Origin: Escherichia phage vB_EcoM_PHB05
Reading direction: 5' to 3' (one strand)
Sequence record: NC_052652.1
DNA: 64,000 bases
Shown here: in pieces, positions 13,224 to 30,723 of the stretch
Layout of the letters: each line of letters begins with the position of its first letter
Numbering within the stretch: the stretch's first letter is position 1
Notes under the pieces: generated by a model
The model's database searches: none
What the model was told of the DNA's origin: nothing
The model's input: only the letters and a program-made list of their open reading frames with translations
Translations under genes and position numbers: made by a program

Positions 13224-15383
13224 ATGAAACAGGCTATTTTTACTGTAACTCGAAATACGAGAGTAAATGCCAGTTCATTCAGCTATAAGACCGTCGATGG
13301 AACGGCGGTCGCTGGTAGAGATTATGTAGCTAAACAGGGAACAGTAACGTTCCCTTCTGATGCAGATTCTGCTACTGTAGTGGTTGATGTATATGAACGT
13401 CCGGCAAACTCTTTAGATCTTTATTTTACTCTTGAGATTACTAGCATAAGTCAAAATAACATGATGATCAACGAAGAAATTCGTTGTGTTATTACGACTG
13501 ATCAATCGAATACAACCCCGCTAACTTGGCCTGTTGTGAAGTCTAGAATGTTTGATCCTAAGTTTTGGACAATAGATTCTCAAGCAACAGAAAGTTGTTC
13601 TATTATCTCTAATGGTGATTCTTTCACAGCAAGAATGGTTAATAGGACAGTGGCTGGTCTTGCTGGGATTATTTGGTCAACTTACGATAAATATGATCAC
13701 AAAGGATTAGGCTACCAAGAACATTCTGACTTAAGTAAAGAGAAACTTTGGTTTAAAATGGAACTTAGTCAAGGTGTTCCTGGATTAAAAGAAGAAAAAT
13801 TAATACCATCCTTAACAGTGACACTGAAGGATGAAACAGTTCATTATGTATCTCTAAACTTTTATGCAGAAGAAGTTTCAGAAGATGGTAAGACAGCAAC
13901 AATCAAACTAGATTTCTCAAATTTAAAATCTGGGTCAGAAAATGATATTGTTGTTGACACTACACAGATAGATAATATGTTCTTCTCCTTGATCTCCACA
14001 AGGTATCAAGAAATTGAAGAAATTATTCCTGTAGACAATGTGGATCTTTCCTTTAAATTTACCATACTGGAGCCTGACACTGGTTACAGTATGATGAATA
14101 TGGGTAATTTAAATGTTCCAGCACACACCATAAGAATGTGCACATCTTATGATGATATGTATAACCTGACCCCAGAGCGAGTTATTTCTAACACCTACAG
14201 ATTAGGTTATAGGGATATGATTAACCACTATAATGGTATGTCACACTATTATCAGTTTAGTTGGGATGCTGGTTCTAATAAATGGGTTTTGAATAGAACA
14301 GAATATTTAAACCCAGCAACAGAAGCATGGTTTGATAATTTCCACGCTAATGCAAAAGCTATGGGCTACACAGTAATGAATTCCTTAAGTTTTGAACTTA
14401 TGAGTACAGTGTGTCCTGTAGAATGGGTACAACATACTTGGAATGATGATCTGGCTGCTACAGGTTATGAGCCACCAAGTTATGTTTTATCTCCTTCAAT
14501 TGATGAAGGGATGAATTATTTACAAGGTGTAATAAATAAGATAGCTTCTATATCCGCTGCCAATGATCTTCCTGTTATTATTCAGGTTGGTGAACCGTGG
14601 TGGTGGTATAACACAGCTACCAATCTACCGTGTATTTATGATTATACAACCAAAGTTGCATTTAATAATGAAACTGGATTGTATGCACAAGATGTTGGTA
14701 CAGTTAAAAATTATAAAACTGGTACACCATATGATGAATATTATGCATTCCTATCTAAAACATTAGGACTGCGTGTTGCTAAATTTGCAACAGATACCAG
14801 ATTAGCATATCCTGGAGCTAAAGTTACATTATTACCATTTGTGCCATCCATTTTGGGTAATGGTATGATGGAGTTTGTTAACTTCCCTAAAGATTATTAT
14901 ATCCCAGAGAACTTTGACTTTTATTGTTCAGAATGTTATGACTGGTTGTTGGAAGGTAAGATGGAAAAATCTTTCGACGCTATCACAATACCTAATGAGC
15001 AACTAGGTTTTAGTTACGATAAGATACACTATCTTGCAGGGTTTGTTCCAGACGCAACTCTAGCACCATTATATGGCTTTGATCCTGAATCAGACTACAG
15101 AACATATTTGTGGAAAATGATTATAGGTAATATTGTATTGAATGATCAGAAGTTTGTTGGTTTATATCAATACATATGGGCTTACCCACAAATAATGCAT
15201 GATTCAATAACTGTTCTTAATTCAAAATCCCAAGTGTTTTATATGGGTAATGTGCCTTTGAATTGCTACTTGCAAGATATCACTCTTAAACAAGTAAATG
15301 CTGAGATTGCCACCATAAGTGGAATTACATTAGCCACTAAATCTGGAGAAGATTTAGTAACAACACAAAAATTTTATATATAG
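13224..15383 (+). CDS. Virion protein with N-terminal Calx-beta-like domain
   Basis: 719 aa; N-terminal segment YKTVDGTAVAGRDYVAKQGTVTFPSDADSATVVVDV resembles Calx-beta motif. Confidence 0.45.
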   Translation: MKQAIFTVTRNTRVNASSFSYKTVDGTAVAGRDYVAKQGTVTFPSDADSATVVVDVYERPANSLDLYFTLEITSISQNNMMINEEIRCVITTDQSNTTPLTWPVVKSRMFDPKFWTIDSQATESCSIISNGDSFTARMVNRTVAGLAGIIWSTYDKYDHKGLGYQEHSDLSKEKLWFKMELSQGVPGLKEEKLIPSLTVTLKDETVHYVSLNFYAEEVSEDGKTATIKLDFSNLKSGSENDIVVDTTQIDNMFFSLISTRYQEIEEIIPVDNVDLSFKFTILEPDTGYSMMNMGNLNVPAHTIRMCTSYDDMYNLTPERVISNTYRLGYRDMINHYNGMSHYYQFSWDAGSNKWVLNRTEYLNPATEAWFDNFHANAKAMGYTVMNSLSFELMSTVCPVEWVQHTWNDDLAATGYEPPSYVLSPSIDEGMNYLQGVINKIASISAANDLPVIIQVGEPWWWYNTATNLPCIYDYTTKVAFNNETGLYAQDVGTVKNYKTGTPYDEYYAFLSKTLGLRVAKFATDTRLAYPGAKVTLLPFVPSILGNGMMEFVNFPKDYYIPENFDFYCSECYDWLLEGKMEKSFDAITIPNEQLGFSYDKIHYLAGFVPDATLAPLYGFDPESDYRTYLWKMIIGNIVLNDQKFVGLYQYIWAYPQIMHDSITVLNSKSQVFYMGNVPLNCYLQDITLKQVNAEIATISGITLATKSGEDLVTTQKFYI

Positions 15384-15391
15384 GAGTAAAA

Positions 15392-17965
15392 ATGTCAACT
15401 ACAATTACTAATTTACCAGAAACATCAAAAGTTAATGATTCTGATTACCTGGTTTTAGACCAATCTGATAAGACTGTTAAAAGCACAGTTTCCAAATTTC
15501 TTGCTGACACTGGGGTGGTTTTAGCCACCCAGTTGAAAGATACAGATGGAGCAGATTTAATACAATCCTCAAATGGTAATACTGTTCAGGAAGAGTTGAA
15601 TAACAATCTTCTTAATGATCGTGAACAGTGGCGTCGTAGTCTTGCAGAGGCAGGGTTAACACTTGTCGATGGTAGCTTTGAAGAGGGGGCTACAGTGGGC
15701 AGTGTAACTGATGCTATCTGGTACATGGCAGGTGCTCAGTGCTACACATGGGATGGTGTATTACCTAAAGACGTACCACCTAAATCAACCCCGACATCAA
15801 CTGGTGGTGTTGATTCTGGTGCTTGGGTTAGTGTTGGTGATATGTCATTAAAGGATAATCTTTCAAACTCCAGTAATGATAATTACGGTGATGCGCTGGT
15901 AGCAGTTAAGCAGCCGTATACTACCGCAATAAACAGAACGCAGCATGATAAAAATGCTGATGTACTTGATATTTCTGATTTTGGTGTAGATATAACTGGT
16001 GCTTCTGATGAGGGCAGTAAGTTACAACAGATATTTAATGAGTTGGCCGCAGCAGGCAAGTCTATTCGTATGCACGGGTCTGTAAAGACTACTATTAACT
16101 TAGATATACGGTGTAATGTGCTGTTTGAACCAGGGTTTAAATTAACTGGCGTGAAGCTAGAAACTGGACCGCAGACCTACATTAATATTTTTAATCGTAA
16201 TATAGATGTAAGCCATATTGTTCTAGATGGCATTGTTATGTGTTTCTACCCTGTAAGTTCCACGACTACTGTTAGAAACAAGAGATGTATTACGTTTACA
16301 TCAAATACGTTAGAAGACTCGTGTGTCCGGGTGGGCGGTGATAACCTCTCTGTGCGTAACGTGTTAATTTCTAACAATACTTTTAAGAACTCCGGGTCAC
16401 GTGTTCCAACAGCAATTCGCCTAATCAATGTCTCAAACGTTGAGGTAAGTTTTAACCTTATCCAGGAGTATGGTAGGCCTATTTATCAAACAGCAACTCG
16501 CTCTTTCTCTAACTACAATGTCAATATACACCACAATAATGTGGTTTGTGATTATGGTATAGTTCTTGAGGGTACTACTGCTTTTAGAGTTAGTAAGTTC
16601 ACAATTGCTGACAATGACATTGTTTGTGAGGTAAGGAACACAGCAGCAGGTGGACGAGATGCGATTGATGTCCGCTATGGCACTAGCGGACAAATACTCA
16701 ATAACAACATCAGAACTAATGGCAGAAACATTCGTTTATCCAATACTAAAGCTGATGTTCTATTTAATGATATGGTATCGAGTGCAACAAGTGCATTCTC
16801 TGTATTGATGGCTAGTTGCTATGAATCATCTTTTATTGGTAATAAAGTTTTCAATAATTCTACTGCTGAAATTATTGTTGTGCATGTGCAGACAGAGGCT
16901 GGAGGTCTTTACACGAGTAACAACGTAAGAATCGAATCCAACACTATCAAAGGTTTTGGTCGTCTGATTCGTGTGTTGGACACCAAGGATTATGTTGTTA
17001 CTAACAATAGATTAATAAGGACTTCAAACAATGGTAATGCAGTTATTGTTGCAGATGGTACTAGTGACAGAGGCCAGGTGCATAGCAATGTGGTAGTTGG
17101 TCCTGCTGGGGTTGTTGTATCTAGTATCAGCGGAACCAACAATGCAACAACCACTGCTGATACACTTCTGAGTGTTGCAGCTAACAGCAAGACCGTAACA
17201 GCCGTGGCGAATGGATTAGTTGATCCAGACTTGAATAATTCGAAGGCATTCATCTTCAATGTTCAGGTATCTGATGTTCAGATGTTACGAGCTTTATCAT
17301 CAACTGGTGCATCAAACGCCAAGACAGTATCTCAATTCATGGCTAGGGTATCCGGTGCAACCTTAGCTTGGAATGGTACTGCCTCAGTATCTGAAGTGGG
17401 TGGACCACCTGACATCTTCGTAAATGGTGTTCTTCAAGACTCATACGGTGCAGAAGATTATATATTCTACCGGTCAGGTATGCTTATTGACTCACAGAAT
17501 AAACTCAGTGTCCGTGACTTCCAGTGTACTGGCGATGGGGATACTACCGATGATGGTACAGGGGAAATGACGCTCCGTAATATGGCAGCAGCACAAGCAG
17601 CTGAGGGGGCTATTCACAGCGCATTCTTCCGTTCTCCTCTGGTTATGGATGGGGTTATTTACAATCCTGACACCACAGGAATTTATAAAAAATCTTACTT
17701 TGATACATCTCTAGATCCTAGAATGGCTATAGGACAAAAAGCTGATGGAACCTACGTTATTATTTGTGTTAATGGTAGATACGCAGATGGGGTAAGTCCA
17801 GGCTGCACTATGCAGCAGCTAGCATCTAAGTTTGTAGCCCTGGGTTGTATCAACGCAATGAACTTGGATGGCGGTGGTTCAGCTACTCTTTGGTATAACG
17901 GTACTATCCTTAATACCCCGTCGGATGGAAGTGAACGCCCTGTTTACCATTGTATGTATGTGTAA
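15392..17965 (+). CDS. Tailspike / tail fiber with right-handed beta-helix region and C-terminal LDGGGS domain
   Basis: 857 aa; conserved fiber N-terminus; repeated Asn-rich beta-helix-like segments; C-terminal NAMNLDGGGSATLWYNG. Confidence 0.55.
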   Translation: MSTTITNLPETSKVNDSDYLVLDQSDKTVKSTVSKFLADTGVVLATQLKDTDGADLIQSSNGNTVQEELNNNLLNDREQWRRSLAEAGLTLVDGSFEEGATVGSVTDAIWYMAGAQCYTWDGVLPKDVPPKSTPTSTGGVDSGAWVSVGDMSLKDNLSNSSNDNYGDALVAVKQPYTTAINRTQHDKNADVLDISDFGVDITGASDEGSKLQQIFNELAAAGKSIRMHGSVKTTINLDIRCNVLFEPGFKLTGVKLETGPQTYINIFNRNIDVSHIVLDGIVMCFYPVSSTTTVRNKRCITFTSNTLEDSCVRVGGDNLSVRNVLISNNTFKNSGSRVPTAIRLINVSNVEVSFNLIQEYGRPIYQTATRSFSNYNVNIHHNNVVCDYGIVLEGTTAFRVSKFTIADNDIVCEVRNTAAGGRDAIDVRYGTSGQILNNNIRTNGRNIRLSNTKADVLFNDMVSSATSAFSVLMASCYESSFIGNKVFNNSTAEIIVVHVQTEAGGLYTSNNVRIESNTIKGFGRLIRVLDTKDYVVTNNRLIRTSNNGNAVIVADGTSDRGQVHSNVVVGPAGVVVSSISGTNNATTTADTLLSVAANSKTVTAVANGLVDPDLNNSKAFIFNVQVSDVQMLRALSSTGASNAKTVSQFMARVSGATLAWNGTASVSEVGGPPDIFVNGVLQDSYGAEDYIFYRSGMLIDSQNKLSVRDFQCTGDGDTTDDGTGEMTLRNMAAAQAAEGAIHSAFFRSPLVMDGVIYNPDTTGIYKKSYFDTSLDPRMAIGQKADGTYVIICVNGRYADGVSPGCTMQQLASKFVALGCINAMNLDGGGSATLWYNGTILNTPSDGSERPVYHCMYV

Positions 17966-18011
17966 TTATCTGGTGGGACTGAGCTAATGGCGTAGATTTC
18001 ATAGCAAAAAA

Positions 18012-18027
18012 CCCCGCTTCGGCGGGG
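18012..18027. terminator. GC stem-loop (ccccgc-ttcg-gcgggg) flanked by A-run; second copy at 18602..18617
   Basis: Perfect 6-bp inverted repeat after tailspike stop; A-tract upstream rather than T-tract downstream, so orientation ambiguous. Confidence 0.35.
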
Positions 18028-18057
18028 TAATCATTGAGAATAACAATAGGAGTACAT

Positions 18058-18156
18058 ATGGAATCTCAACTCAGTCAACCTAAGCAGGTTATCAACGTCA
18101 AAGTGAACAAGCAGAGTATCGCTCATGATTTAAAAAGTAATGAGAACGCACTATGA
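18058..18156 (+). CDS. Small ORF (32 aa), duplicated at 18648..18746
   Basis: ATG with AGGAG RBS; stop overlaps next start in ATGA; below ORF-track size cutoff, read from DNA. Confidence 0.25.
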   Translation: MESQLSQPKQVINVKVNKQSIAHDLKSNENAL

Positions 18157-18362
18157 GAAAATTTTTAATAGGTATGTTCTGTACATATCCTGATAATAAA
18201 GTCAGTTCTACTAAAGTTTGGAATGCTATTGGTATGATTGTTATGTCCAGTATGTTTATTTATTTGGGAATTGATAAAGAAATTCCTGAATGGATGGGCT
18301 GGGCTTTTGTTTTTATGATCACACCATCCAGACTAATGAAGAATCGTTATTATTTGTGTTAA
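18153..18362 (+). CDS. Duplication-derived variant of small membrane protein (C-terminus altered by repeat junction)
   Basis: First 63 residues identical to ORF 18743..18988, then reads across junction (ends NRYYLC). Confidence 0.3.
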   Translation: MRKFLIGMFCTYPDNKVSSTKVWNAIGMIVMSSMFIYLGIDKEIPEWMGWAFVFMITPSRLMKNRYYLC

Positions 18363-18934
18363 TGGTAGATACGCAGATGGGGTAAGTCCAGGCTGCACTA
18401 TGCAGCAGCTAGCATCTAAGTTTGTAGCCCTGGGTTGTATCAACGCAATGAACTTGGATGGCGGTGGTTCAGCTACTCTTTGGTATAACGGTACTATCCT
18501 TAATACCCCGTCGGATGGAAGTGAACGCCCTGTTTACCATTGTATGTATGTGTAATTATCTGGTGGGACTGAGCTAATGGCGTAGATTTCATAGCAAAAA
18601 ACCCCGCTTCGGCGGGGTAATCATTGAGAATAACAATAGGAGTACATATGGAATCTCAACTCAGTCAACCTAAGCAGGTTATCAACGTCAAAGTGAACAA
18701 GCAGAGTATCGCTCATGATTTAAAAAGTAATGAGAACGCACTATGAGAAAATTTTTAATAGGTATGTTCTGTACATATCCTGATAATAAAGTCAGTTCTA
18801 CTAAAGTTTGGAATGCTATTGGTATGATTGTTATGTCCAGTATGTTTATTTATTTGGGAATTGATAAAGAAATTCCTGAATGGATGGGCTGGGCTTTTGT
18901 TTTTATGATCACACCATCCAGACTAATGAAGAAT
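18345..18934 (+). repeat. Tandem direct repeat, copy 2 (590 bp)
   Basis: Second copy immediately adjacent to copy 1; sequence diverges after gaat at 18934. Confidence 0.85.
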
Positions 18935-18988
18935 TTAATAGATTTACGTTGGGGCAGATCACCTGCCCCTGATAAGGAGGATAACTAA
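18743..18988 (+). CDS. Small membrane protein (two predicted TM helices)
   Basis: 81 aa with two hydrophobic stretches; intact copy in repeat 2. Confidence 0.45.
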   Translation: MRKFLIGMFCTYPDNKVSSTKVWNAIGMIVMSSMFIYLGIDKEIPEWMGWAFVFMITPSRLMKNLIDLRWGRSPAPDKEDN

Positions 18989-20475
18989 TGGCAGATTATG
19001 GTTTAACAGATGCTGGTTTTGTAATTCCAACGTTTGATGATATTTTAAATAATTATATGACAGCATTGAAAAACACTTTCGGTGCAGATACAGCTACATC
19101 TGAAGATACTGTCTTTGGACAACTGTTCCGTATTATTGCATACACAGATTACACCCTTTGGGAAGGTATGCAAGGTGTTTACAATACCCAAACCTTAGAT
19201 GGTGCAGAAGGTATTTACCTTGATGAAATCTTCTCTAAAAGAGGTTTTTATCGTAAAGCTGCTTCTGCTGGTAGTGGTTATGCTTATGTTAAATCTAACA
19301 ATAAGGCAGCTTGGACTTATGAACTAAGCACAGATGTTTATTTTAATGCCGATAACGATTTGACATATTATGTCAGTGCACCAACAATGTTGAATGCTAA
19401 GATTGGAGCATATACCATTTCTAAAGCAAACGCAACAGCTTCTGGTGAAACTTCTATTACTTTCTACATTCAAAGTGCTATTGATGGTGGTCTTAACAGT
19501 AAAACATTAAGTCCTAGCAATACAAACTTTATTTTAGATCTCACGAATTTCATTAAAGCTAACGTATCAACAACAGATCGTGCTTTAGTATGGAATGATG
19601 CTAGTAATGTTTATATGGGTTATAATCCAGAAGATAATGTTAACCCAATAGGTCTAGTAACACCAGTGAAATTTTATGCATCCATTGCAATTGGTACAAA
19701 ATGGAGTGAAATTCCAGTTACGTGTTCAGACGTTGGTTATAATCCAGTAGGTACAGAAAGTATTACAGGTATTTCTTCAACGTTTACAGGCTTTTTAGAT
19801 ACAGGTAACTTCTATCCGTTCTCTCCAGGTACAGATGTTGAAACAGATGCAGAATTCCGTTCTCGTTTCAATGATAATATGGATGAAGCTAATGCTGCTA
19901 CTCGTGCTGCTATTGTTAAAGCTCTATTACTGACAGATGGTGTGACAAAGGTTAAGATTTATGATAACCCTACACTACACGATCAGGAACATGCTCCAGC
20001 TATGACATTCCAGACTATTGTGTATGGTGGTACAGCAGAAGAAGTTGCACAGGTTATTTATAATACTAAGCCTATTAACACATTAACTTATGGTACGACA
20101 GCAATTACTATCGTAACAGAAGATGGTGGTCAAGAAGTAATTCGTTTTTCTCCTGGTGATAATGCGGAATACTCACTTAAACTGGTATATCAAACTGGTA
20201 ATGGTAGTGTGTTAAGTACAACAGAAAGAGAAAATATTGTTTCTGCTCTTGCAAACTTACAGGCTTATTTTGAATTAGGGTCAACAGTAACTAACGACCA
20301 GATAAAAGGTGTAATTTATTCTGCACTTGCGTTCGGACGCTTGACTTCTCTCCGTGTTTATGTTAAACTTAATACTGAGGATGACAGTAAATATAATGAG
20401 GGAGATATCACTCCAGCGTACAATGTTGTACCATCCTTTGACCTTGATAATATTTCCTACGAGTACGGAGTCTAA
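18988..20475 (+). CDS. Baseplate J-like protein (putative)
   Basis: 495 aa; size and position in baseplate block, followed by small tail-protein gene. Confidence 0.45.
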   Translation: MADYGLTDAGFVIPTFDDILNNYMTALKNTFGADTATSEDTVFGQLFRIIAYTDYTLWEGMQGVYNTQTLDGAEGIYLDEIFSKRGFYRKAASAGSGYAYVKSNNKAAWTYELSTDVYFNADNDLTYYVSAPTMLNAKIGAYTISKANATASGETSITFYIQSAIDGGLNSKTLSPSNTNFILDLTNFIKANVSTTDRALVWNDASNVYMGYNPEDNVNPIGLVTPVKFYASIAIGTKWSEIPVTCSDVGYNPVGTESITGISSTFTGFLDTGNFYPFSPGTDVETDAEFRSRFNDNMDEANAATRAAIVKALLLTDGVTKVKIYDNPTLHDQEHAPAMTFQTIVYGGTAEEVAQVIYNTKPINTLTYGTTAITIVTEDGGQEVIRFSPGDNAEYSLKLVYQTGNGSVLSTTERENIVSALANLQAYFELGSTVTNDQIKGVIYSALAFGRLTSLRVYVKLNTEDDSKYNEGDITPAYNVVPSFDLDNISYEYGV

Positions 20476-20477
20476 AA

Positions 20478-21107
20478 ATGGCAGTGAGTGTTGACCATGT
20501 GACAACGTGGGATAGTATCAATGAAGATGTTAAAGACCTACTGATTGAAGATTTTAAATCTTCTCCGAACATTGTCAAACTACTCTATATCATTTCTAGC
20601 GAAAAACAAAAGATAGATCAGGCAATGATCTATCTTGCCAAACACCGCTTAATCTCTACTGCAACTGGTAAGTATTTAGATCTTATTGGTGAAGAGATGG
20701 GGATGGAGAGAAATGGTGCTACGGATGAAGAGTATCGTACAATATTAAAAATCAGGGCTTATCGTGTTGCGTCTTCTGGTACGCGAGATGATATCATTGA
20801 TATGTTCGCTCGTTTTACAGGAACAGAAAAAGAAACGATCAATACATACGTTGGATTAAATAAAACATTCGACGTATTCTTTTATAATTTGTGTCTACAA
20901 TCCGATCAGGCAGTAGCACAGTTACTTAACGTTTTCCCGATCCTAAGTAGTTATCGCTTAGGTGCGAAAGCGGGTGCAGCCTTTGGTTTCACTTCCTATT
21001 ATGCCACAAAGCCACCTCATGGTATAGGTGGTTTAGGTTCTCTTTACACAGAGGCTGAAGGAGATGATACAGGGCGAATGACTATGCTGATAGCTCAAAT
21101 AGAATAA
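20478..21107 (+). CDS. Tail/baseplate protein (putative)
   Basis: 209-aa ORF translationally coupled to upstream gene. Confidence 0.35.
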   Translation: MAVSVDHVTTWDSINEDVKDLLIEDFKSSPNIVKLLYIISSEKQKIDQAMIYLAKHRLISTATGKYLDLIGEEMGMERNGATDEEYRTILKIRAYRVASSGTRDDIIDMFARFTGTEKETINTYVGLNKTFDVFFYNLCLQSDQAVAQLLNVFPILSSYRLGAKAGAAFGFTSYYATKPPHGIGGLGSLYTEAEGDDTGRMTMLIAQIE

Positions 21108-21120
21108 GGAGTTACTCTTA

Positions 21121-22101
21121 ATGGCAAAGCCACAATACTACCCTGACTGGGCGACACAAACAGTAACCCTCCCAGGAACGGGAAACACAAACAAGATTAG
21201 ACCAAAAGAAACCATCCGTAATGTCGGTATGGACTTTGGTCAGATTATGACTTGTGAAGAAATGAACTGGATCTTAAACAATATTGGGTCTTGGATTCGC
21301 TATATGCAAGATGAATTCTTCCCAACATTGCCTACTACATATCTTCCTATAGTCGGTACTAAAATTACAATGGCAGGTGATGCTACAGGTGAAGTTACAT
21401 GGAACGGTAATGCTGCTGTAACATTGTCTATTCAAGTCGTAGATAACAGCCATAATCACTTATCAGCTAACATTACAGACGCAACATCAAACCAAGTTGT
21501 AGGGAATGTCCTTGTTAAGCGTGATAATGGTGGTGCTATCTATGCAGGTGATATTTACACTTGTGGTACAGGTGCTACAGATCCTGCAACATTATTTTTT
21601 AGAAACTATAACGGACAAACAGTAGGCAATATGTCTTCTGAACCAGGTGCAGGTGGTCAACTCTATATTTATAGAATAAATCCATCTACTGGAGGAACAT
21701 CTTGTGGAGTTCGTTTGTATGATGCAGGTTATGTTTTAATAGACAATCCTCGTTCTAATTCTGGTCAAGACACTGGCAATGGTAATGCTCTTGTAAGATT
21801 AGATTATCTTAACTCAAGACTAAACTCATTGCAAAGTACATTGCAAAATAATATTAACAACGTTAATAGCAACTTGCAAGGCCAAATTAATAACATTAAC
21901 AATAGAGTTTCTTCTGTTGTGTCTTCTATCCGTCTAGGTACACGTATTAAAGCTGGTGTATCTGAATCTCCTTTCTATGCTGGTCACGTGATCACAGGCT
22001 GGGGTTTTGGTGATAAGAAAGAACTTCGTGGTGCTTGGTATTGGTCTGCTCCGCTACAATATTACATTAATGGTAGGTGGATAACAGTAACCAACGTTTA
22101 G
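21121..22101 (+). CDS. Tail fiber protein (putative)
   Basis: 326 aa; Asn-rich heptad-like segment LNSRLNSLQSTLQNNINNVNSNLQGQINNINNRVSSV typical of fiber shafts. Confidence 0.4.
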   Translation: MAKPQYYPDWATQTVTLPGTGNTNKIRPKETIRNVGMDFGQIMTCEEMNWILNNIGSWIRYMQDEFFPTLPTTYLPIVGTKITMAGDATGEVTWNGNAAVTLSIQVVDNSHNHLSANITDATSNQVVGNVLVKRDNGGAIYAGDIYTCGTGATDPATLFFRNYNGQTVGNMSSEPGAGGQLYIYRINPSTGGTSCGVRLYDAGYVLIDNPRSNSGQDTGNGNALVRLDYLNSRLNSLQSTLQNNINNVNSNLQGQINNINNRVSSVVSSIRLGTRIKAGVSESPFYAGHVITGWGFGDKKELRGAWYWSAPLQYYINGRWITVTNV

Positions 22102-22113
22102 TAAGGAGAACAC

Positions 22114-22665
22114 ATGAAAAAAGATGTTATTTACACTGGCTTTGAACTATATCAACCAGAATTGACAGAAGAAAATGTCATGTATCTTTCAATAGGTGCT
22201 GGTTTTCTTAAAGATAAAGATGGTAATGATTGGTACGAAATTCAGAAATATTTATCCAAAAATTACCCTGATGCCTATTTCTTAACTCTAGATCACAACA
22301 ATGTAGTTGTTGCAGCTACGAAAGATGTTTCTACATATTTTCCCGCTGGTCTTACTGTTCTTGTAACATACAATGTTCCAGATAAGATAGAAGAAGAAAG
22401 CAACCTAGGATCGTGGAGATATGACAATGGTAAGTTTGTTTCTCATAATGGGTTTGCAATAGAAGATGCCAACCTTAAAATGGAAAAAGAATTAACTTGG
22501 GCCACAAATCAAATATCTGCAATTCAAGATTTAGAGGAATTACAAGGTTTATCTGAAGAACAAAAAGATTGGTTAGGAAAAGTTAAACTATATCGTGCAA
22601 CACTGATTCAAATTAACGTTGAAGATGCACCTAATATAACTTGGCCTACAAGACCTAAGAAATAG
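22114..22665 (+). CDS. Hypothetical protein (tail fiber assembly candidate)
   Basis: 183 aa directly downstream of fiber gene. Confidence 0.3.
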   Translation: MKKDVIYTGFELYQPELTEENVMYLSIGAGFLKDKDGNDWYEIQKYLSKNYPDAYFLTLDHNNVVVAATKDVSTYFPAGLTVLVTYNVPDKIEEESNLGSWRYDNGKFVSHNGFAIEDANLKMEKELTWATNQISAIQDLEELQGLSEEQKDWLGKVKLYRATLIQINVEDAPNITWPTRPKK

Positions 22666-22674
22666 GGGTAATGT

Positions 22675-23016
22675 ATGGAGCTAACAGAAGTATGGGATAT
22701 CGCTAAAGAGGCGATTATCCCTCTTATTGGTGTAATCTGGGTGGTCTTCAAACAGAAGATAGATGATATAGCAAGTGATTTGGATAAAATGGAAGACAAA
22801 TACCGTGAACTAGAAAAGAAGTTGGTGTTTGTTGAATCCACTTATGCTACCAAAGCAGAACTTGCTCAAATGCTTAACCAGATCAACTCTACATTAATGG
22901 CAAATAATACTGCCTTAGAACAGAAAATTGAAAAAATAATGGATTTAAAAAATGCTCCTGTTCAATTAATGCTAGAGGAGATTACGAAGCGCACACAAAG
23001 TAAGGACAAAAATTAA
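22675..23016 (+). CDS. Hypothetical coiled-coil protein
   Basis: 113-aa ORF; stop overlaps next start. Confidence 0.35.
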   Translation: MELTEVWDIAKEAIIPLIGVIWVVFKQKIDDIASDLDKMEDKYRELEKKLVFVESTYATKAELAQMLNQINSTLMANNTALEQKIEKIMDLKNAPVQLMLEEITKRTQSKDKN

Positions 23017-25430
23017 TGGCGAATTTTCCAACATATCCTGCTACGACACTAGAACAAGGTGTTGATCTGGTTATATTCTCGTCTAACCAGATGCATGATG
23101 TTATTAACGGGGATGCTACAGCAACTGTAGAAACCGAAACAGGTTTAATACCTACACTGCGTAAAGCACTTGTTGATAACTTCTTCTTTAAGAGTCCTGT
23201 TGCTTGGTCAGCAGGATCAACTGAAACTGTATTTAACCAGTTACGTTATTTTGAAAACGGCATCTTGAGTGGGTACTACTATGCCCCATCTGCCACTACT
23301 GCGAACCCTGTACCTATGCAGGGTACACCTGTAGGAGACAGTAACTGGACTCTGTATGCTCTTAAAACTGAACAGTTAGCTTCAGATGTGTATCCTTGGT
23401 ATTTTAAAGGTGCTACAGGGTATGAGACAGAAATCAGTCCTCCTTATATCTTTGATAATGCTATTGTCACCATTAACGGTGTAATTCAGATTCAGGGTGA
23501 AGCATTTACTATCAAAGATAGTAAAATTATTCTGGCAGAACCATTAGGTTTAGATCCGTCTACTGGTCTACCTAACAAATTGTTTGCTTTTATTGGTAAA
23601 ACAACAGCCTCTACTTCTTACGTAGAGAAAAACCTTTTGTCATCTACCACTGGTGCAGCAATGGTTGGTCTTCCATCTGGAGGCAATCTGTTACAAGCTC
23701 AATACTTTGTAACGCCTGAGCAGTTTGGTGCAATTGGTGATGGAGTTACCGATGATACTCAAGCAATTCTAAAAACCATTACTTTCGCTAACACGAATAA
23801 CATTCAAGTACGTGCAGATAAGAATTATAGATTCACAAGCTCAATTGCTATGTCTGGTATTCGTTGGTATGGTGGTACATTCACTGGTAACGGTGGAACA
23901 ATGATTTCTACTGTGTCCTGTTGGATTGAAAACGTTCGCTTTGAAAAATGTTATGTTAAGATGTTAGGTGGTGATTGCCGATTCTATCGTAATATCTTCT
24001 CCAACGCAACATCTACAGCAGCATTCTTAATGCAAGCAATGACAAGTGAAGGTACGTTGGACTTCAGTTACAACGAGATGTATGGTTGTAAATATGCGAT
24101 CCTGCAACAAGGTACTGGAGAAGTAATGACCTATGGGCGTTACTCTAACAACTACATTCACGATATCAAAGGTGATGCTATTGAACTTAACGTAGTTCAA
24201 AGACACTACACTGAAGGTTTGATCATCGAGAATAACCACATTGCTAACGTAGATGCTTCTGGACAAGGTGCAAACTGGGGTATTGGTATTGGTGTAGCAG
24301 GTAGTGGCCCATATGGTGTTGATGCTCCTGATTCACAATATGTACGTAACTTCAGTATCGTTGGAAATAGAGTTTACAATTGCCGTCAATGTCTACACGT
24401 TGAAATGGGTAAAAACTTCACAATACGTGATAACGAAGTTTATCCTAACACAGCAGTTTCAACAGGTACAGGTTTAACTACTTGTGGTGTTGCATTATAC
24501 GGATGCCAAGACTTTGAAGTTGATGGTTTAACTGGTTATCTGCTTAATGATCCGTCTGTTTCAACACGCATGGTCTTTATTGACTGGGGTGTTAACGGTG
24601 GAAGATATGCGGGGCCACCAATTAACTTTACAATTAAGAATTTGGATATTCCAGAATCTTCGATTGAGATTGCAACGGCTGGATCAGACGCCTGGGAAAA
24701 CTCTACAATTGTTAGTAACATCAATTGTAATGATTTTAAATGGCGTGGGCTACCATCTAGCTCTACTTTTAATAATATTCGTTGCCGTAGTATTGACTTT
24801 ATTGGTCAACACGGAAGCGGAGAAGGAAGTGGTGGCGGTTTCTATGCTCGCAGCCAATTCACTTATATGAAGTGGGTAGGATGTACAGCACTTAGCGGAG
24901 ATGAAACAACAGTTTCTTTTGCTAAAATCTACACGGATCGTTGCGATCAGGTTGGAAATAACTTTGGTGTTCCAACTGCTGTTGATGGTACAGGTCATCG
25001 TGGGCCAGTCTTAACCACTATTTCTGAACAATATTTTACAGATTATGATGAATTCCCAGGTGGGCGTGACTTCCCTACTGGAACAGTTATTCATTGTGCA
25101 AGCGGTAAAAAACACGTTGTTACAGTAGGTGGTGCTTTCTTTAGTAATAAAGAGAAAATAAAAGCAACTGTTACAGGTCAAACCTATCTACAGTCTAATG
25201 CTTTAAACTGGGCTAGTAATGGCTACGCTAAAGCGGCAGGTACTAAGATTGTTATTCCAGGTGCAGGAGCAAATGGTGGCGATCTTGTGACAACTATAGC
25301 ACGTGCTACATATGTGACAAATAGTTTGTACACAATAGATATTGCAGATCCAATTGTAACACCTACAGCAGAGAATACACAAATTAAAGCTCTGAACCCT
25401 GTTACTTTTGTTACTGTCAATAATGCTTAA
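23016..25430 (+). CDS. Tailspike with pectate-lyase-like beta-helix (putative depolymerase)
   Basis: 804 aa; FGAIGDGVTDDTQAI motif characteristic of right-handed beta-helix glycosidase/lyase tailspikes. Confidence 0.55.
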   Translation: MANFPTYPATTLEQGVDLVIFSSNQMHDVINGDATATVETETGLIPTLRKALVDNFFFKSPVAWSAGSTETVFNQLRYFENGILSGYYYAPSATTANPVPMQGTPVGDSNWTLYALKTEQLASDVYPWYFKGATGYETEISPPYIFDNAIVTINGVIQIQGEAFTIKDSKIILAEPLGLDPSTGLPNKLFAFIGKTTASTSYVEKNLLSSTTGAAMVGLPSGGNLLQAQYFVTPEQFGAIGDGVTDDTQAILKTITFANTNNIQVRADKNYRFTSSIAMSGIRWYGGTFTGNGGTMISTVSCWIENVRFEKCYVKMLGGDCRFYRNIFSNATSTAAFLMQAMTSEGTLDFSYNEMYGCKYAILQQGTGEVMTYGRYSNNYIHDIKGDAIELNVVQRHYTEGLIIENNHIANVDASGQGANWGIGIGVAGSGPYGVDAPDSQYVRNFSIVGNRVYNCRQCLHVEMGKNFTIRDNEVYPNTAVSTGTGLTTCGVALYGCQDFEVDGLTGYLLNDPSVSTRMVFIDWGVNGGRYAGPPINFTIKNLDIPESSIEIATAGSDAWENSTIVSNINCNDFKWRGLPSSSTFNNIRCRSIDFIGQHGSGEGSGGGFYARSQFTYMKWVGCTALSGDETTVSFAKIYTDRCDQVGNNFGVPTAVDGTGHRGPVLTTISEQYFTDYDEFPGGRDFPTGTVIHCASGKKHVVTVGGAFFSNKEKIKATVTGQTYLQSNALNWASNGYAKAAGTKIVIPGAGANGGDLVTTIARATYVTNSLYTIDIADPIVTPTAENTQIKALNPVTFVTVNNA

Positions 25431-25433
25431 TTA

Positions 25434-25456
25434 AAAGGGGCGAAAGCCCCTTTATA
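25434..25456 (+). terminator. Rho-independent terminator
   Basis: aggggc-gaaa-gcccct hairpin followed by TTTAT. Confidence 0.45.
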
Positions 25457-25470
25457 AAAGGAGTAGTAAA

Positions 25471-27441
25471 GTGATTTTAACACGTCCAAATAGTGCCATT
25501 GCAGACATGGTAGAGTCTCGCTATAGAAAGCGTAGAAGTTTTGCAAGTGGTTTTACCTTAAGAGATGCTCGTGAAGCATTGCTCTTTGAAGCTGACGGTA
25601 ACTACTATCAGTGGAAAGGTTCTCTACCTAAAGTTGTACCTGCTAACTCTACTCCTACATCCACTGGAGGGATTTCAGATACAGCTTGGAAAAATGTGGG
25701 TAATGCAGATGACATTGCTCAAATAGAATCAGAATTAGATGCTATTGAAGCTGAAATTGAAGATCTTAGAGAATCCATCCCAGAAGCTGGTAAATCAGCT
25801 TACCAGATTGCCGTAGACAATGGTTTCCAAGGTACTGAGACACAGTGGTTGGCTTCTTTAAAAGGTGATCCAGGTGCTCCATTAAAGCTATTAGGGACAC
25901 TATCTAATACCAACCAATTACCTACAAGTGGAAACAATGCAGGGGATGCATGGATTGTAGGCGAGGATATGTATGCTTGGGATGGTACTGCTTGGAGAAA
26001 AGTAAACTCACAGGGGCCAGAAGGTAAATCTGCTTATGAAGTATGGCTTGCAGCAGGAAATGAAGGTACAGAACTAGATTATCTTGCTTCAATTAAAGGT
26101 GATAAAGGGGAGCCTGGCCCAGAGGGGCCACAAGGTGTGCCAGGTAACAATGCTAATGGTTTTGATTACCAAGGCGCAGCTAATTCCGTTTCAGATCTTC
26201 CTTCTGCATCTCATGGAAACACATCTCAAGCATGGAGTGTTGGTACATATCTATACGTGTCAAACGGTGTAGAATGGATCAATATGGGCGCTATAGTGGG
26301 GCCAAAAGGAGATAAAGGCGACAAAGGAGATAAGGGTAACACTGGTGATTCAGCTTATCAAGTCTGGTTAAATGCTGGTAACGTTGGTACTATTGACGAA
26401 TATATTGCCTCTCTGAAAGGAGAAAAAGGTGATAAGGGAGACAAGGGTGATCAAGGTGCACAGGGTATACAAGGCTTGACGGGGCCAACTGGTGCAGGGT
26501 TGACCATTATTGACATTCTGACTAGCACTTCTGAACTGCCACAAACTGGGGAAGATGGTGATGGTTATCTGATCAATAATGAACTTTGGGTCTGGTTGCA
26601 AGGAGCCACAGAGTGGACAAATGTTGGTCGTTTAGCTGGTACTCCAATCACTGCAAAAGGACACGTTGCGTTTGCAAGTGCGCTTCCTCCTACAGCCAAT
26701 TACGGTGATGCTTATCTGACGGAAGATACAGGTCATCTTTACATTTACACCTATAATGAACAAACTCAAACTGCTGAATATGTAGATATGGGTAGTTTGA
26801 AAGGTGATAAGGGTGAAAAAGGTGAGAAAGGTGACGCTGGTACTAACGGTACAGACGGTGCAACTTGGATTGTTAAAACAACAGATCCAATCTCTAGTGA
26901 TGGTAAACAAGGTGATTATGCCTTTAATATCTCCACTGGCGAAGTGTTCTTAAAAACATCTGCAACTGTCTGGACTTCTCAAGGTACACTACCTAGTATC
27001 ACAGATGCACCTAGTGATGGTAAGACTTATGCTCGTAAAGATGGGGCATGGGAAGAACTCACTAATTCTGTAGATGGTCAAGATATAGTTCCAACAAAAG
27101 TAACAACTAATTTTATAGAGGTTACAGCATATACCAATAATTCTGTTACAGGGGACTGGACACCTCCAGGAACACATAACATGAATGTGTTGAATCTTAC
27201 TGGTAACGCTACTATAAAAGCATGGCCTGGTGTCGAAGATAGTACAAAACCTAAACCATTCTCTGCAATAGTTTATCTTATCCAAGATGCCACTGGAGGT
27301 CGTACTGTTACTTTAGATCCATCTTACAAAGTAATTGGTTCCAGTGATATTAATACAGATCCTAACGGAGTAACAATACTACAACTAACATATTGTGGTG
27401 TTGGCGATTACGTGGATGCTATTGTTGCTAAACGCACATAA
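25471..27441 (+). CDS. Tail fiber with collagen-like G-X-Y repeats and phage-fiber repeats
   Basis: 656 aa; GDKGDKGDKG and GEKGDKGDKGDQGAQGIQG runs; three repeats of SAY..W...G..GT...Y.AS.KG. Confidence 0.6.
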   Translation: MILTRPNSAIADMVESRYRKRRSFASGFTLRDAREALLFEADGNYYQWKGSLPKVVPANSTPTSTGGISDTAWKNVGNADDIAQIESELDAIEAEIEDLRESIPEAGKSAYQIAVDNGFQGTETQWLASLKGDPGAPLKLLGTLSNTNQLPTSGNNAGDAWIVGEDMYAWDGTAWRKVNSQGPEGKSAYEVWLAAGNEGTELDYLASIKGDKGEPGPEGPQGVPGNNANGFDYQGAANSVSDLPSASHGNTSQAWSVGTYLYVSNGVEWINMGAIVGPKGDKGDKGDKGNTGDSAYQVWLNAGNVGTIDEYIASLKGEKGDKGDKGDQGAQGIQGLTGPTGAGLTIIDILTSTSELPQTGEDGDGYLINNELWVWLQGATEWTNVGRLAGTPITAKGHVAFASALPPTANYGDAYLTEDTGHLYIYTYNEQTQTAEYVDMGSLKGDKGEKGEKGDAGTNGTDGATWIVKTTDPISSDGKQGDYAFNISTGEVFLKTSATVWTSQGTLPSITDAPSDGKTYARKDGAWEELTNSVDGQDIVPTKVTTNFIEVTAYTNNSVTGDWTPPGTHNMNVLNLTGNATIKAWPGVEDSTKPKPFSAIVYLIQDATGGRTVTLDPSYKVIGSSDINTDPNGVTILQLTYCGVGDYVDAIVAKRT

Positions 27442-27444
27442 TCA

Positions 27445-27468
27445 AAGCCCCTTCGGGGGCTTATTATT
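27445..27468 (+). terminator. Rho-independent terminator
   Basis: agcccc-ttcg-ggggct hairpin followed by T-rich tract. Confidence 0.45.
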
Positions 27469-27480
27469 TAAGGAGATTAA

Positions 27481-30300
27481 ATGTATCCTATTCCTTTATT
27501 TATGTCAACAACATCAGCTTCAGTAGTAACAGCTACATCTATAACCACTTCCTCTATTGGTATTGCAATAGTTGGTAGTAAAAAGCAACTGACATACACA
27601 GTTTCACCAGAAGATGGTGCGTTATTTGATATAGCTTTTTCATCTTCAGATAATACCAAAATGGTTATAGATAATAATGGTATGATGGAGTTTGTTGCTG
27701 AAGGCGGTTTTGATGCAATAATGACAGCTAAAAATAATTTAGGTGCTGTCTTAACTGATCAATCTGGTGGCTATGCTTCAGAATTAAGTGTGTACACTGA
27801 AAGTCTGTCTGCTATGGATGCAGGAACTACTCAACAATTGGTTGCTACAATCAGTCCAGAAGGTGCTAAAGACCTTCCAGACATGGTGATTACGTACACC
27901 ACAACAGATCCAGAAGTAGCTACTGTAAGTCCTACAGGGTTAATAACTGCTCTTAAAGATGGTAGTTGCCGTATAGGTTGTACTGCAACTTATCAAGGAA
28001 CAGTGGTGGCCTCTGATAGTTCTTATTTAGGTGTTAATGCTGTTCCTGTTATTTCTAATGTAACAGCCGTGGCAAACAGCTATGGAGACATTCGTGTTGC
28101 TTGGGATGTAGCTGATCCGCTAGATGGTGATACTTATACTGTAGAAGTATTAGATTTAAGTAATAACAGTGTCCAGTGGACTACAACAACCACGAATACT
28201 CATGCTTACTTTGATATCTCTGACTCTATTCCTCTTTATGGGTTTGCTCCAACATACCTTAAAATTAGCGTTAAGAGCACCAAAGCAGCACCCGTTATCT
28301 TTAATAACTCAATAGCTACAGATGATTCGTTCATTAAAGAAGTTATTGTCTTTGCTGGACAAGATAACGTAAATGCACACTTTACAGAACTATCTGGTGC
28401 AAATAAAGCAGTAATGAGTAGCACAACAACCCGTAATGCATATGCTACGCAACGTGGTTTAGCAAATGCTGAAGTTCTTCCGTTAAATGCAGCTTCTGGA
28501 TCATCAGCAGCAGATAAATATGCAGATGATAAAGCCGGAACAGGTACACCAGACAACTACTGGTATGATCTGGATAACGCAGCAGATGGGCCATGCTTAA
28601 CTAATTTTATCACTAAAGTCACACCTTATGCAAGTAAGGTTAAAGCAATTATTTGGGGACAAGGTGAAAATGATGCTGTATCAGCATCTTCGACTGTTGC
28701 AGGTAGATACAGTAACACTACACGTTACCATGATGCTACGATAGCTATCTTTGATAAGATGCGTACAATAGTTCCTGCTTCTCAAGCAAAAATTGTTTGG
28801 CAGATCCTAGGACGTTCTTATCTATATGGTGTAGAAGTTAATGGTGTGGATTGGCAGAAATACAGAAATGTACAAAGAACCATCTCTACAGCACGTGACG
28901 ATGTTATCATTGGTTCTTGGGTGGATGGTGCTGAACGCTACAGTGGTTATGTTTATGAAGAAGGTATTGATGGTCGTATCCATTATATTTCTTCTGTATA
29001 CCAAACAGCAGCTACAAAACTTGCTAAATCAGCAGCAGACGGTACAGACTTAACATCAACATCACCTGTTTGGGTTGATATGGCTGTTCCAACTGGAGCA
29101 ACAGCTATTTCCCAAGCTAATCAAGATACAATTTTAGCATGGGATGCTCAAGGTTATAGTAAACACTACTTCCGTAATATTAACGTCTTAACAGCATCTG
29201 TATTAACTGAACAAACGCTTAATACGAACAGTTATACGTTTACCTATGCAGATCAAGTAGAACAATATGGTTTTGCAGCAGGTACTACGATATTTGATGT
29301 TGCATATTATGACGAAGCAAATGATGTGTTATCTCCTTTAGTACGTTTTAATGTTAGCGTTACAGCAGGAAAAGTAGAAGATAAACCTGTCGTGATGGAC
29401 TATGATTTGACGCAAGAAACTCTTCCATCAGATGTTAAGGTTAATGGTGGGAACTCTTTTGCTCGTGCCTCTGGAGATATACTTGTAGCCACTAACACCT
29501 TGGTTGCTCCGTTGGAGTATGTTGGTACTACCCCTGTAGGTAGACGTGTAACAGCTAACACAGCTACACAAATTTTTGTCAACAACGCCTTAACAAGTGC
29601 AAGCCCGTGGGTAAAGACCAACTTAACTGTTGCAGCTTCATCTGATAAATCTCCGGCTGGAACTACTGCTAATGTATTCAAATTAACTCCGACTACAACC
29701 TCTGGTAGTCATATCTTAACTGCAACATATACTAACGCGTACAACATATCTGCCGGACGTAACTGGTCTGCCTCTGTTTTCTTGAAAGCGAACGGGATTA
29801 CTAAGGCCAAACTAAGATTAAAAGCAGGAACTGAAGTTAATGAGGGTACTTTTGATTTAGCAGCAGGTACATTCACAGGAAGTGAAGCTAATATTATATC
29901 TATGGGCAACGGTTGGTATCGTGCTATTCTGCATAAAACAGGGATAGCCAAACAGTCCTCCATAAGTTTTGAAATAATTGCCTTGGATGCAACTGGTGCG
30001 GAGATTTTCGCTGGAGATGGTACTAGTAACCTTGCAGTTTGGTTGCCACAGCTTGAAGGTGCTTCTACAGGAGAAACATCAAAAGCTGGATCGCCTTATG
30101 TCTGCACATATCCTGGAAATTTAGGAGGAGTATCCTTCACTATACCAAGGAACGGACATACTGGTGTGGATGTTTACTATTCCAACGGAGACGTTGTTCG
30201 TGATGTATTCTCTGGCACAGCATCTACTTGGACAATAAACTACTCCAGCTTGTACGATTGGGGATCAGTCTTTATTACAGGTTTGAAATATTACGACTAA
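27481..30300 (+). CDS. Tail fiber/spike with SGNH-esterase-like segment
   Basis: 939 aa; N-terminal Ig-like region; central AIIWGQGENDA motif reminiscent of SGNH/sialate-O-acetylesterase-type hydrolases. Confidence 0.45.
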   Translation: MYPIPLFMSTTSASVVTATSITTSSIGIAIVGSKKQLTYTVSPEDGALFDIAFSSSDNTKMVIDNNGMMEFVAEGGFDAIMTAKNNLGAVLTDQSGGYASELSVYTESLSAMDAGTTQQLVATISPEGAKDLPDMVITYTTTDPEVATVSPTGLITALKDGSCRIGCTATYQGTVVASDSSYLGVNAVPVISNVTAVANSYGDIRVAWDVADPLDGDTYTVEVLDLSNNSVQWTTTTTNTHAYFDISDSIPLYGFAPTYLKISVKSTKAAPVIFNNSIATDDSFIKEVIVFAGQDNVNAHFTELSGANKAVMSSTTTRNAYATQRGLANAEVLPLNAASGSSAADKYADDKAGTGTPDNYWYDLDNAADGPCLTNFITKVTPYASKVKAIIWGQGENDAVSASSTVAGRYSNTTRYHDATIAIFDKMRTIVPASQAKIVWQILGRSYLYGVEVNGVDWQKYRNVQRTISTARDDVIIGSWVDGAERYSGYVYEEGIDGRIHYISSVYQTAATKLAKSAADGTDLTSTSPVWVDMAVPTGATAISQANQDTILAWDAQGYSKHYFRNINVLTASVLTEQTLNTNSYTFTYADQVEQYGFAAGTTIFDVAYYDEANDVLSPLVRFNVSVTAGKVEDKPVVMDYDLTQETLPSDVKVNGGNSFARASGDILVATNTLVAPLEYVGTTPVGRRVTANTATQIFVNNALTSASPWVKTNLTVAASSDKSPAGTTANVFKLTPTTTSGSHILTATYTNAYNISAGRNWSASVFLKANGITKAKLRLKAGTEVNEGTFDLAAGTFTGSEANIISMGNGWYRAILHKTGIAKQSSISFEIIALDATGAEIFAGDGTSNLAVWLPQLEGASTGETSKAGSPYVCTYPGNLGGVSFTIPRNGHTGVDVYYSNGDVVRDVFSGTASTWTINYSSLYDWGSVFITGLKYYD

Positions 30301-30302
30301 TA

Positions 30303-30332
30303 AAAAAGGAGCCATTAGGCTCCTTTTCTTTT
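30303..30332. terminator. Bidirectional terminator at convergence of the two transcription blocks
   Basis: ggagcc-atta-ggctcc hairpin flanked by A-tract (5') and T-tract (3'). Confidence 0.55.
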
Positions 30333-30335
30333 ATC

Positions 30336-30716: not shown

Positions 30717-30723
30717 ACCGTTG

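Follow-up and report, generated by a model that had tools for sequence, protein, structure and literature searches.

The multi-fibre locus of Escherichia phage vB_EcoM_PHB05: a phi92-like adsorption module with an exchangeable NAGPA-domain tailspike

A phi92-like tail-fibre and baseplate-periphery locus

The DNA analysed here is a window of 64,000 nucleotides (nt) from Escherichia phage vB_EcoM_PHB05 (PHB05; record NC_052652.1). The large fibre-like genes at positions 15,392 to 30,300 raise the question of whether one virion carries several receptor-binding proteins, and whether the segments that these proteins share reflect modular exchange. Proteins are named pNNN, for the product of an open reading frame (ORF) of NNN amino acids (aa) in the window. 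The initial annotation had counted at least four receptor-binding-type proteins (p857, p804, p656 and p939) and had proposed a multi-receptor host-range apparatus. All four large ORFs are present (Table 1), but four is an undercount, since p958, p719, p157 and p326 belong to the same apparatus. We consider it highly probable (about 90%) that the locus encodes the tail fibres and baseplate periphery of a myophage of the phi92-like genus Justusliebigvirus, whose virion carries several glycan-directed receptor-binding proteins at once.

The megablast search of the region matched 129 phage records, and the best of them were Escherichia coli myophages of Justusliebigvirus (phi92-like, Stephanstirmvirinae). 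The DNA identity to many genomes of this genus was 95-99% across the whole locus. In addition, the order and lengths of phi92 genes 141-151 agreed one to one with the genes in the window, and we found the sheath initiator, gp140-143, the membrane protein, the gp145/146 wedges, the gp147 short fibre, the gp148 chaperone and gp150-151 in the phi92-type arrangement. The ORF map also agreed with the annotations of phi92, JLBYU50 and PaulScherrer, and p857 was 100% identical to the annotated tail spike of vB_EcoM_PHB05. Furthermore, the orthologous locus of phi92 has been interpreted in the literature as a multi-receptor apparatus (PMC8594841; PMC11984140; PMC13450770).

Two of the large proteins were readily assigned. 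The protein p804 had been called pectate-lyase-like. It is indeed beta-helical, and it is the orthologue of the phi92 gp150 colanidase, because residues 180-804 matched residues 2-626 of the colanidase crystal structure (6E0V_A; E = 0, 1412 bits). It also matched an NCBIfam WcaM-like region (E = 6e-29), PHROG 6117 and Pfam TSP_Ig-like. The collagen-like nature proposed for p656 was borne out by a Pfam Collagen match (35.2 bits against a cut-off of 27.2, E = 1e-8) and by four G-X-Y runs of 6-9 triplets each (residues 210-227, 277-294, 317-343 and 445-465). These runs are interleaved with repeated beta-hairpin units, and a Tail_spike_N domain lies at the extreme N-terminus.

The working of such an apparatus can be outlined from phi92. 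There, the wedges gp145 and gp146 (p495 and p209 in PHB05) carry three sets of six trimeric fibres, and fibres I and III dock on the C-terminal domain of gp145. The short fibre gp147 (p326, with the chaperone p183) is fibre III, and the protein of the gp143 slot was inferred to be the tip of the L-shaped fibre I (PMC13450770). The colanic acid is degraded by gp150, here p804 (PMC13450770, PMC8594841), and phi92-like phages depend on the NGR glycan, like N4 (PMC8669472). In PHB05, conserved N-terminal modules would dock differing distal modules onto a constant baseplate. The virion would read several glycans in parallel and would carry, in addition, one strain-specific tailspike (p857). A cassette swap at this one slot would retarget the phage to another O or K antigen, and the recognition of colanic acid (p804), NGR (p719/p939) and lipopolysaccharide core (p326) would stay constant.

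Several points weigh against this picture. The joint presence of all these proteins on the virion is taken from the cryo-electron microscopy (cryo-EM) of phi92, in which fibre II is unassigned, and not from sequence. In addition, p939 lacks the SGNH nucleophile, so it might bind a glycan rather than cleave it. The literature gives no enzymatic activity for any NAGPA-type phage protein, and the AF2 monomer model of p857 has a moderate mean pLDDT of just 60, with values below 50 in its NAGPA part.

Shared blocks and cassette exchange at the p857 slot

The initial annotation had described two shared segments, an internal block in p857 and p656 and an N-terminal anchor motif in p157 and p857, and both proved to be real. 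The pattern W.G.LPK.VP..STPTSTGG....AW..VG fits both proteins of the first pair. Residues 95-150 of p857 align with residues 23-78 of p656 at 46% identity (BLASTP, E = 2e-10), and the ungapped BLOSUM62 score of 135 was reached by none of 20,000 shuffles (-48 +/- 15). For the anchor motif, residues 9-46 of p157 and 5-42 of p857 are 45% identical (E = 3e-7), with an ungapped score of 84 that was likewise reached by 0 of 20,000 shuffles (-23 +/- 13); the p157 gene itself lies outside the range first noted. When a small hidden Markov model of each motif was run against all 547 six-frame ORFs of the window, each found just its known protein pair. The internal block is Pfam PF18668, Tail_spike_N (Tail spike TSP1/Gp66 N-terminal domain), which scored 65 bits in p857 and 75 bits in p656 (E = 5e-21) against a gathering threshold of 25 bits. 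It also matched the corresponding part of CBA120 TSP1/3/4 and of further solved tailspikes. Meanwhile, the anchor comprises about 40 residues.

Such highly significant similarity at the protein level could be taken to favour recent recombination or gene conversion among the fibre genes inside this genome. However, both blocks are 56% identical in DNA and 41-42% identical at third codon positions, and their longest stretches without a mismatch measure 9 and 7 nt. The search for DNA repeats over 15000-31000 found no repeat that links the fibre genes, just collagen codon repeats and two chance 20-26-mers. Moreover, the internal block belongs to a widespread family that occurs in tailspikes of CBA120, G7C and Klebsiella phages. 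Recent exchange within the genome is highly improbable, and on these comparisons it appears already effectively refuted. Because of the 56% DNA identity and the lack of a linking DNA repeat, we regard the blocks as old conserved attachment or adaptor modules, predicted to be an N-terminal docking peptide (p157, p857) and a Tail_spike_N adaptor domain (p857, p656). The shared blocks had been read as a sign of modular exchange; the modular architecture stands, but the blocks are no sign of recent exchange between these genes.

The exchange itself was found by comparison with other phages, which is the sole evidence for it: modular exchange is demonstrated because phages differ at the p857 slot. 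For instance, phi92 gp143 shares with p857 residues 1-54 alone (93% identity), and the phi92 DNA matches the window at 15392-15543 only, and then again from 18158. The PaulScherrer DNA matches 15392-15849, and then again from 18123. Meanwhile, a contig of about 35 kb from an unrelated myophage (L003; Logan ERR2241901) matches 15641-18028 at 86% nucleotide identity, from about codon 84 of p857 through the stop codon and the terminator hairpin. Its gene order is sheath initiator, tailspike and wedge, so that the cassette lies between the sheath initiator and wedge genes. At the protein level, the backbone relatives share residues 1-157/170 of p857 at 81-84%, and the tailspikes of small myophages share residues 75-857 at 88-89%. 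Furthermore, more than 100 relatives retain the p857 N-terminus with other C-terminal Pfam domains, including pectate lyase, BNR sialidase, SGNH, SASA and S74 chaperone. Even JLBYU50, which alone among the phage records has the same gene, is 96-99% identical in the backbone and 80-94% in the p857 body.

As judged from these alignments, p857 is a chimera, in which the first 54 codons or so are a genus-specific anchor and the remainder is a horizontally shared cassette. The cassette contains Tail_spike_N, the beta-helix, the NAGPA domain and the terminator, and its two joints can be placed within about 100 nt each (Table 1). The slot gene is a clean, base-resolved case of the retargeting of one slot of a multi-fibre phage. 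The phage of the unrelated contig is a small myophage with RecT, YqaJ and ParB-like genes and the same Tail_spike_N, beta-helix and NAGPA cassette, and it is part of the donor or recipient pool of this cassette.

Behind the tailspike gene there is an ORF of 32 codons. Its first 20 or so and last 8 or so codons are those of a 101-aa ORF in PaulScherrer (L002 8929-9234), which is annotated as 'tailspike protein'. The 32-codon ORF appears to be what is left, after an internal deletion, of a small accessory gene that moves together with the cassette or borders it.

The NAGPA domain of p857 and the p719/p939 pair

The beta-helix that had been proposed for p857 was found again in the AF2 model, in which residues 190-460 have pLDDT values of about 80-94 and form short beta-strands only. 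Foldseek gave a probability of 1.0 to the beta-helix tailspikes CBA120 TSP1/3/4, Sf6, HK620 and phi92 gp150, and both results agree with a parallel beta-helix fold; the Pfam NosD match was weak (E = 0.0012). Nevertheless, the earlier domain reading was incomplete, since it had missed the C-terminal NAGPA domain. The last 180 residues match Pfam NAGPA (PF09992; E = 1e-25, 90.9 bits against a cut-off of 25) over profile positions 11-168 of 169, with further matches to structures of vertebrate NAGPA and of bacterial DUF2233 proteins (PDB 6PKU, 3OHG). The DGGGS loop is invariant in the NAGPA family and holds the catalytic Asp of the human enzyme (PMC13474241). It is intact in p857, and it is kept in homologues of 35-89% identity, together with its flanks in the 35%-identity homologue. 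Unlike the NAGPA 'uncovering enzyme' and DUF2233 proteins, the p857 domain is part of a phage tailspike, fused on the C-terminal side of its beta-helix, and the phosphate-binding Arg of vertebrate NAGPA aligns with His853 of p857.

Among 1.84 billion representatives scanned, there were 26 clusters (50% identity) at E <= 1e-30, most of which span the full beta-helix and NAGPA query. The p857 C-terminal half had no confirmed relative in IMG/VR. In the literature we found no characterisation of a NAGPA or phosphodiester-glycosidase tailspike, and the sole mention is computational, in Curtobacterium prophages. The beta-helix and NAGPA tailspikes are thus a small, diversified and experimentally uncharacterised family.

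The other pair of interest is p719 and p939. The Pfam families TIM-barrel_NCTSP (PF23845, E = 7e-82), NCTSP_N (PF23844, E = 3e-21) and Calx-beta (PF03160, E = 1e-9) were found in p719, and this protein matched gp64 (E = 4e-27) and gp65 (E = 1e-12) of PDB 9LC0. Its domains identify p719 as the likely counterpart of the N-terminal half of the N4 receptor-binding sheath protein gp65 (and of gp64). Meanwhile, p939 matched Pfam Big_2 and NCBIfam NF048003 (E = 3e-19), and its AF2 model (pLDDT 73) has alternating beta and alpha elements over residues 287-520. The best Foldseek match of this model was again N4 gp65 (9LC0_I, E = 3e-24; 9YF5, E = 4e-24), to which tblastn gave a weak match (E = 1e-4). 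On the predicted structure, p939 is homologous to N4 gp65 over the C-terminal two thirds of the latter. In other phages (P0156/157/163/164), p719-like and p939-like parts are fused in a single protein of 1170-1340 aa. Because other phages fuse both parts in one protein, we read p719 and p939 as an N4 gp65 split in two, in line with what has been published on N4 and the phi92-like phages, which have in common the dependence on the NGR glycan and homologous 'deacetylase' tailspikes (PMC8594841, PMC8669472).

The initial annotation had described p939 as esterase-like, and this holds for the fold but not for the complete active site. The Pfam SASA match was under the threshold (16 bits against 24.8, E = 0.009), and block I reads GQDN and not GQSN, with Asp where the nucleophilic Ser is expected. 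GQDN occurs in all Justusliebigvirus orthologues and GGDN in P0152-154, and the fused, N4-like homologues were the only ones with GQSN or GQSH. The motif of N4 gp65 is itself fully degenerate. However, p939 retains block III (QGEND) and the His (RIHY) in a flavodoxin-like alpha/beta fold. The protein p939 may be a glycan-binding pseudo-esterase.

Where PHB05 and most relatives have a single 939-aa gene, a pair of short ORFs is present in phi92 (gp152, 202 aa; gp153, 295 aa; L004 16321-17983), and p939 matched phi92 in two pieces by tblastn. Both observations point to a deletion or a frameshift at the p939 locus of phi92.

For p857, we tentatively propose, at somewhat less than even odds, that its family is an experimentally uncharacterised class of phage depolymerase, which would cut glycosyl-1-phosphate (teichoic-acid-like) linkages in an E. 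coli capsule or O antigen through the DGGGS site, alone or together with a glycosidase site in the beta-helix. In p857 itself, the NAGPA domain would cleave a sugar-1-phosphate-linked surface polysaccharide, and the protein probably cleaves a polysaccharide linked by sugar phosphates. It could also be that the NAGPA-like domain is non-catalytic, a folding or trimerisation module or a lectin, and that any depolymerase activity lies in the beta-helix, which resembles that of active endoglycosidase tailspikes. The endosialidase of phi92 has a C-terminal chaperone domain at the equivalent position, many relatives of the same slot end in such a domain (PF13884, PF27114), and phi92 gp143 is annotated to shed its C-terminal domain. 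However, the near-complete coverage of the NAGPA profile, the intact loop with the catalytic Asp (PMC13474241), which a 35%-identity homologue keeps together with its flanks, and the recurrence of the architecture among about 26 clusters all argue for catalysis, and a non-catalytic domain is unlikely. If cleavage is true, the NAGPA-domain tailspike could extend the phage depolymerase chemistries to sugar-phosphate-linked capsules.

A similar doubt applies to p719 and p939, which might not be independent fibres but a decoration of the baseplate or tail that forms a collar like the N4 sheath, with p939 as a glycan-binding pseudo-esterase. The matches of p719 to N4 gp64 and gp65, the rank of gp65 as the best structural match of p939, the fused proteins of other phages, and the GQDN of block I in all p939 orthologues beside the fully degenerate motif of gp65 all fit such a collar. 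In addition, the phi92 cryo-EM study could not place proteins of the gp142 and p939 type in the fibre density (PMC13450770). On the other hand, the two genes are 12 kb apart, and the conserved QGEND and RIHY motifs leave room for residual or altered catalysis. The N4 sheath protein is itself a receptor-binding protein, so that a collar would change the shape of the structure and not its role. We regard the collar as possible but rather doubtful.

Likeness to known systems, gene order and further observations

Schwarzer et al. are said to have described a multivalent adsorption apparatus in phi92 in 2012. The phi92 apparatus (gp140-gp153; cryo-EM, PMC13450770) belongs to the same genus and agrees with the PHB05 locus in the order and lengths of the genes for gp141, 142 and 144-151; its colanidase is essentially identical (6E0V), and its wedge proteins, short fibre and chaperone are the same. 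However, PHB05 has in the gp143 slot the beta-helix and NAGPA tailspike instead of endosialidase 92, with the first 54 residues alone in common, and its 939-aa protein is intact. The branched tailspikes of CBA120 (TSP1-4) and G7C (gp63.1/gp66) have the same PF18668 N-terminal family as p857 and p656 and follow the same logic, namely a conserved N-terminal adaptor with an exchangeable enzymatic body. In contrast to these phages, PHB05 has another kind of baseplate, with P2/Mu-like wedges; branching (XD) domains like those of T4 gp10 were not detected in its locus, and the domain of p656 precedes a collagen-like fibre and not a beta-helix. As to the N4 sheath and receptor-binding protein gp65 with gp64 (PDB 9LC0, 9YF4), the likeness lies in the NCTSP_N and TIM-barrel part for p719 and in the following domains for p939, and both groups are NGR-dependent (PMC8669472). 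Nevertheless, the PHB05 protein is in two distant genes on a contractile-tailed phage, and p939 is extended by Big_2 domains at its N-terminus and by a C-terminal domain of the GTA-head-spike type.

The cluster, its interpretation and the genome are already public, and the locus is ordinary for the genus save for the NAGPA domain in the exchangeable tailspike. The cluster repeats the published picture for phi92 and the BASEL phages and holds no new principle. Besides this domain, a further detail is the loss of the serine from the esterase motif of the N4-gp65-like protein. These two details, the NAGPA tailspike and the Ser-to-Asp change, are modest and testable; they are useful for host-range engineering and depolymerase discovery, and unsurprising to specialists.

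Table 1. Genes and other features of the PHB05 locus, in coordinates of the window
Feature	Nucleotides	Strand	Residues	Evidence
p157, phi92 gp140 homologue, small fibre or knob protein	9866..10339	+		PHROG 9017 'tail fiber protein', E = 1e-69
p157 anchor motif	9890-10003	+	9-46	
p958, phi92 gp141 homologue, large conserved tail-fibre protein	10339..13215	+		length and position equal to those of phi92 gene 141; PHROG 2871, E = 0
p719, phi92 gp142 homologue, Calx-beta, NCTSP_N and TIM-barrel	13224..15383	+		Pfam, PDB 9LC0
p857, exchangeable tailspike in the phi92 gp143 (endosialidase) slot	15392..17965	+		Pfam, PDB sequence matches, AF2, Foldseek, breakpoints
p857 anchor		+	1-54	
p857 Tail_spike_N (shared block at the nucleotides given)	15674-15841	+	93-150	
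p857 right-handed beta-helix	15959-17101	+	~190-570	
p857 NAGPA domain	17429-17962	+	680-857	
p857 DGGGS	17867-17881	+	826-830	
Left joint of the cassette	between 15543 and 15641			
Right joint of the cassette	between 18028 and 18123			
590-bp unit, first and second copy	17755-18344; 18345-18934			
32-codon ORF and its copy	18058-18156; 18648-18746			
p81, small membrane protein, phi92 gp144 homologue	18743..18988	+		PHROG 1322 'membrane protein', E = 5e-27; synteny with phi92 gene 144
p495, baseplate wedge, phi92 gp145 homologue	18988..20475	+		Pfam Baseplate_J, E = 4e-11; length and position as phi92 gene 145
p209, second wedge protein, phi92 gp146 homologue	20478..21107	+		synteny, length; annotated as baseplate wedge in JLBYU50
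p326, short tail fibre, phi92 gp147 homologue (fibre III)	21121..22101	+		PHROG 4465, E = 4e-109; fibre III per PMC13450770
p183, tail-fibre assembly chaperone, phi92 gp148 homologue	22114..22665	+		PHROG 136 'tail fiber assembly protein', E = 3e-44; synteny
Second variable spot	~21825-22425			
p113, phi92 gp149 homologue	22675..23016	+		synteny and length only
p804, predicted colanic-acid-degrading beta-helix tailspike, phi92 gp150 orthologue	23016..25430	+		PDB 6E0V, PHROG 6117, NCBIfam, Pfam
p656, collagen-like fibre, phi92 gp151 homologue, GTG start	25471..27441	+		Pfam PF18668 and Collagen; PHROG 15437, E = 0
p656 Tail_spike_N (shared block at the nucleotides given)	25537-25704	+	11-77	
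p939, Ig-like, SGNH/SASA-like, FN3-like and GTA-type protein	27481..30300	+		Pfam, NCBIfam, AF2, Foldseek
p939 Ig-like/Big_2		+	~20-250	
p939 SGNH/SASA-like alpha/beta domain, followed by an FN3-like part		+	~280-535	
p939 block I (GQDN)	28357-28368	+	293-296	
p939 block III (QGEND)		+	394-398	
p939 His (RIHY)		+	499-502	
p939 GTA head-spike-fibre-type C-terminal domain		+	694-863	
DNA polymerase, 859 aa	34148-36727	-		

The tail and baseplate genes lie on the plus strand as far as 30300, and replication genes then follow on the minus strand. No sequence match was found for p958 and p157 in Pfam, NCBIfam or PDB. Homologues of p157 with 155-159 aa are conserved through the subfamily, and in one relative (P0250) the p157-type C-terminal domain is fused behind a Tail_spike_N domain. 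In the promoter scan of the region, promoter-like sites were not commoner than in shuffled sequence, and in the terminator scan the sole notable hairpins were those after p857, p656 and p939.

In addition, the window holds an exact 590-bp tandem duplication. The unit starts within the p857 gene, of which it contains the last 211 nt, and runs through the terminator hairpin and the 32-codon ORF into the membrane-protein gene, of which it contains the first 192 nt. At the junction, AATGAAGAAT is directly followed by CGTTATTATT; the identity run equals the period, so there is no microhomology. The duplication leaves both flanking genes intact and creates truncated extra ORFs. JLBYU50, the closest relative, has a single copy of the unit, and neither 50,697 phage records nor IMG/VR contained the junction. 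The duplication is probably an artefact, and an untrimmed overlap of a circular assembly or a wrap of the record is the most economical reading. Assemblies of Stephanstirmvirinae have been reported to end in direct terminal repeats. We rejected a true terminal repeat of the genome as unlikely, since both borders of the 590-bp repeat lie inside coding sequences.

A second variable spot in comparison with JLBYU50 covers the C-terminal tip of p326 and the N-terminal half of the chaperone p183, where identity falls to 70-92%, whereas the backbone stays at 97-99%. Receptor-binding tips and their chaperones usually vary together in this way. Finally, the DNA polymerase on the minus strand has 859 aa, as in JLBYU50, and the version of phi92 and PaulScherrer is longer (about 1104 aa) and contains an intein. 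Thus, the intein is variably present within Justusliebigvirus.

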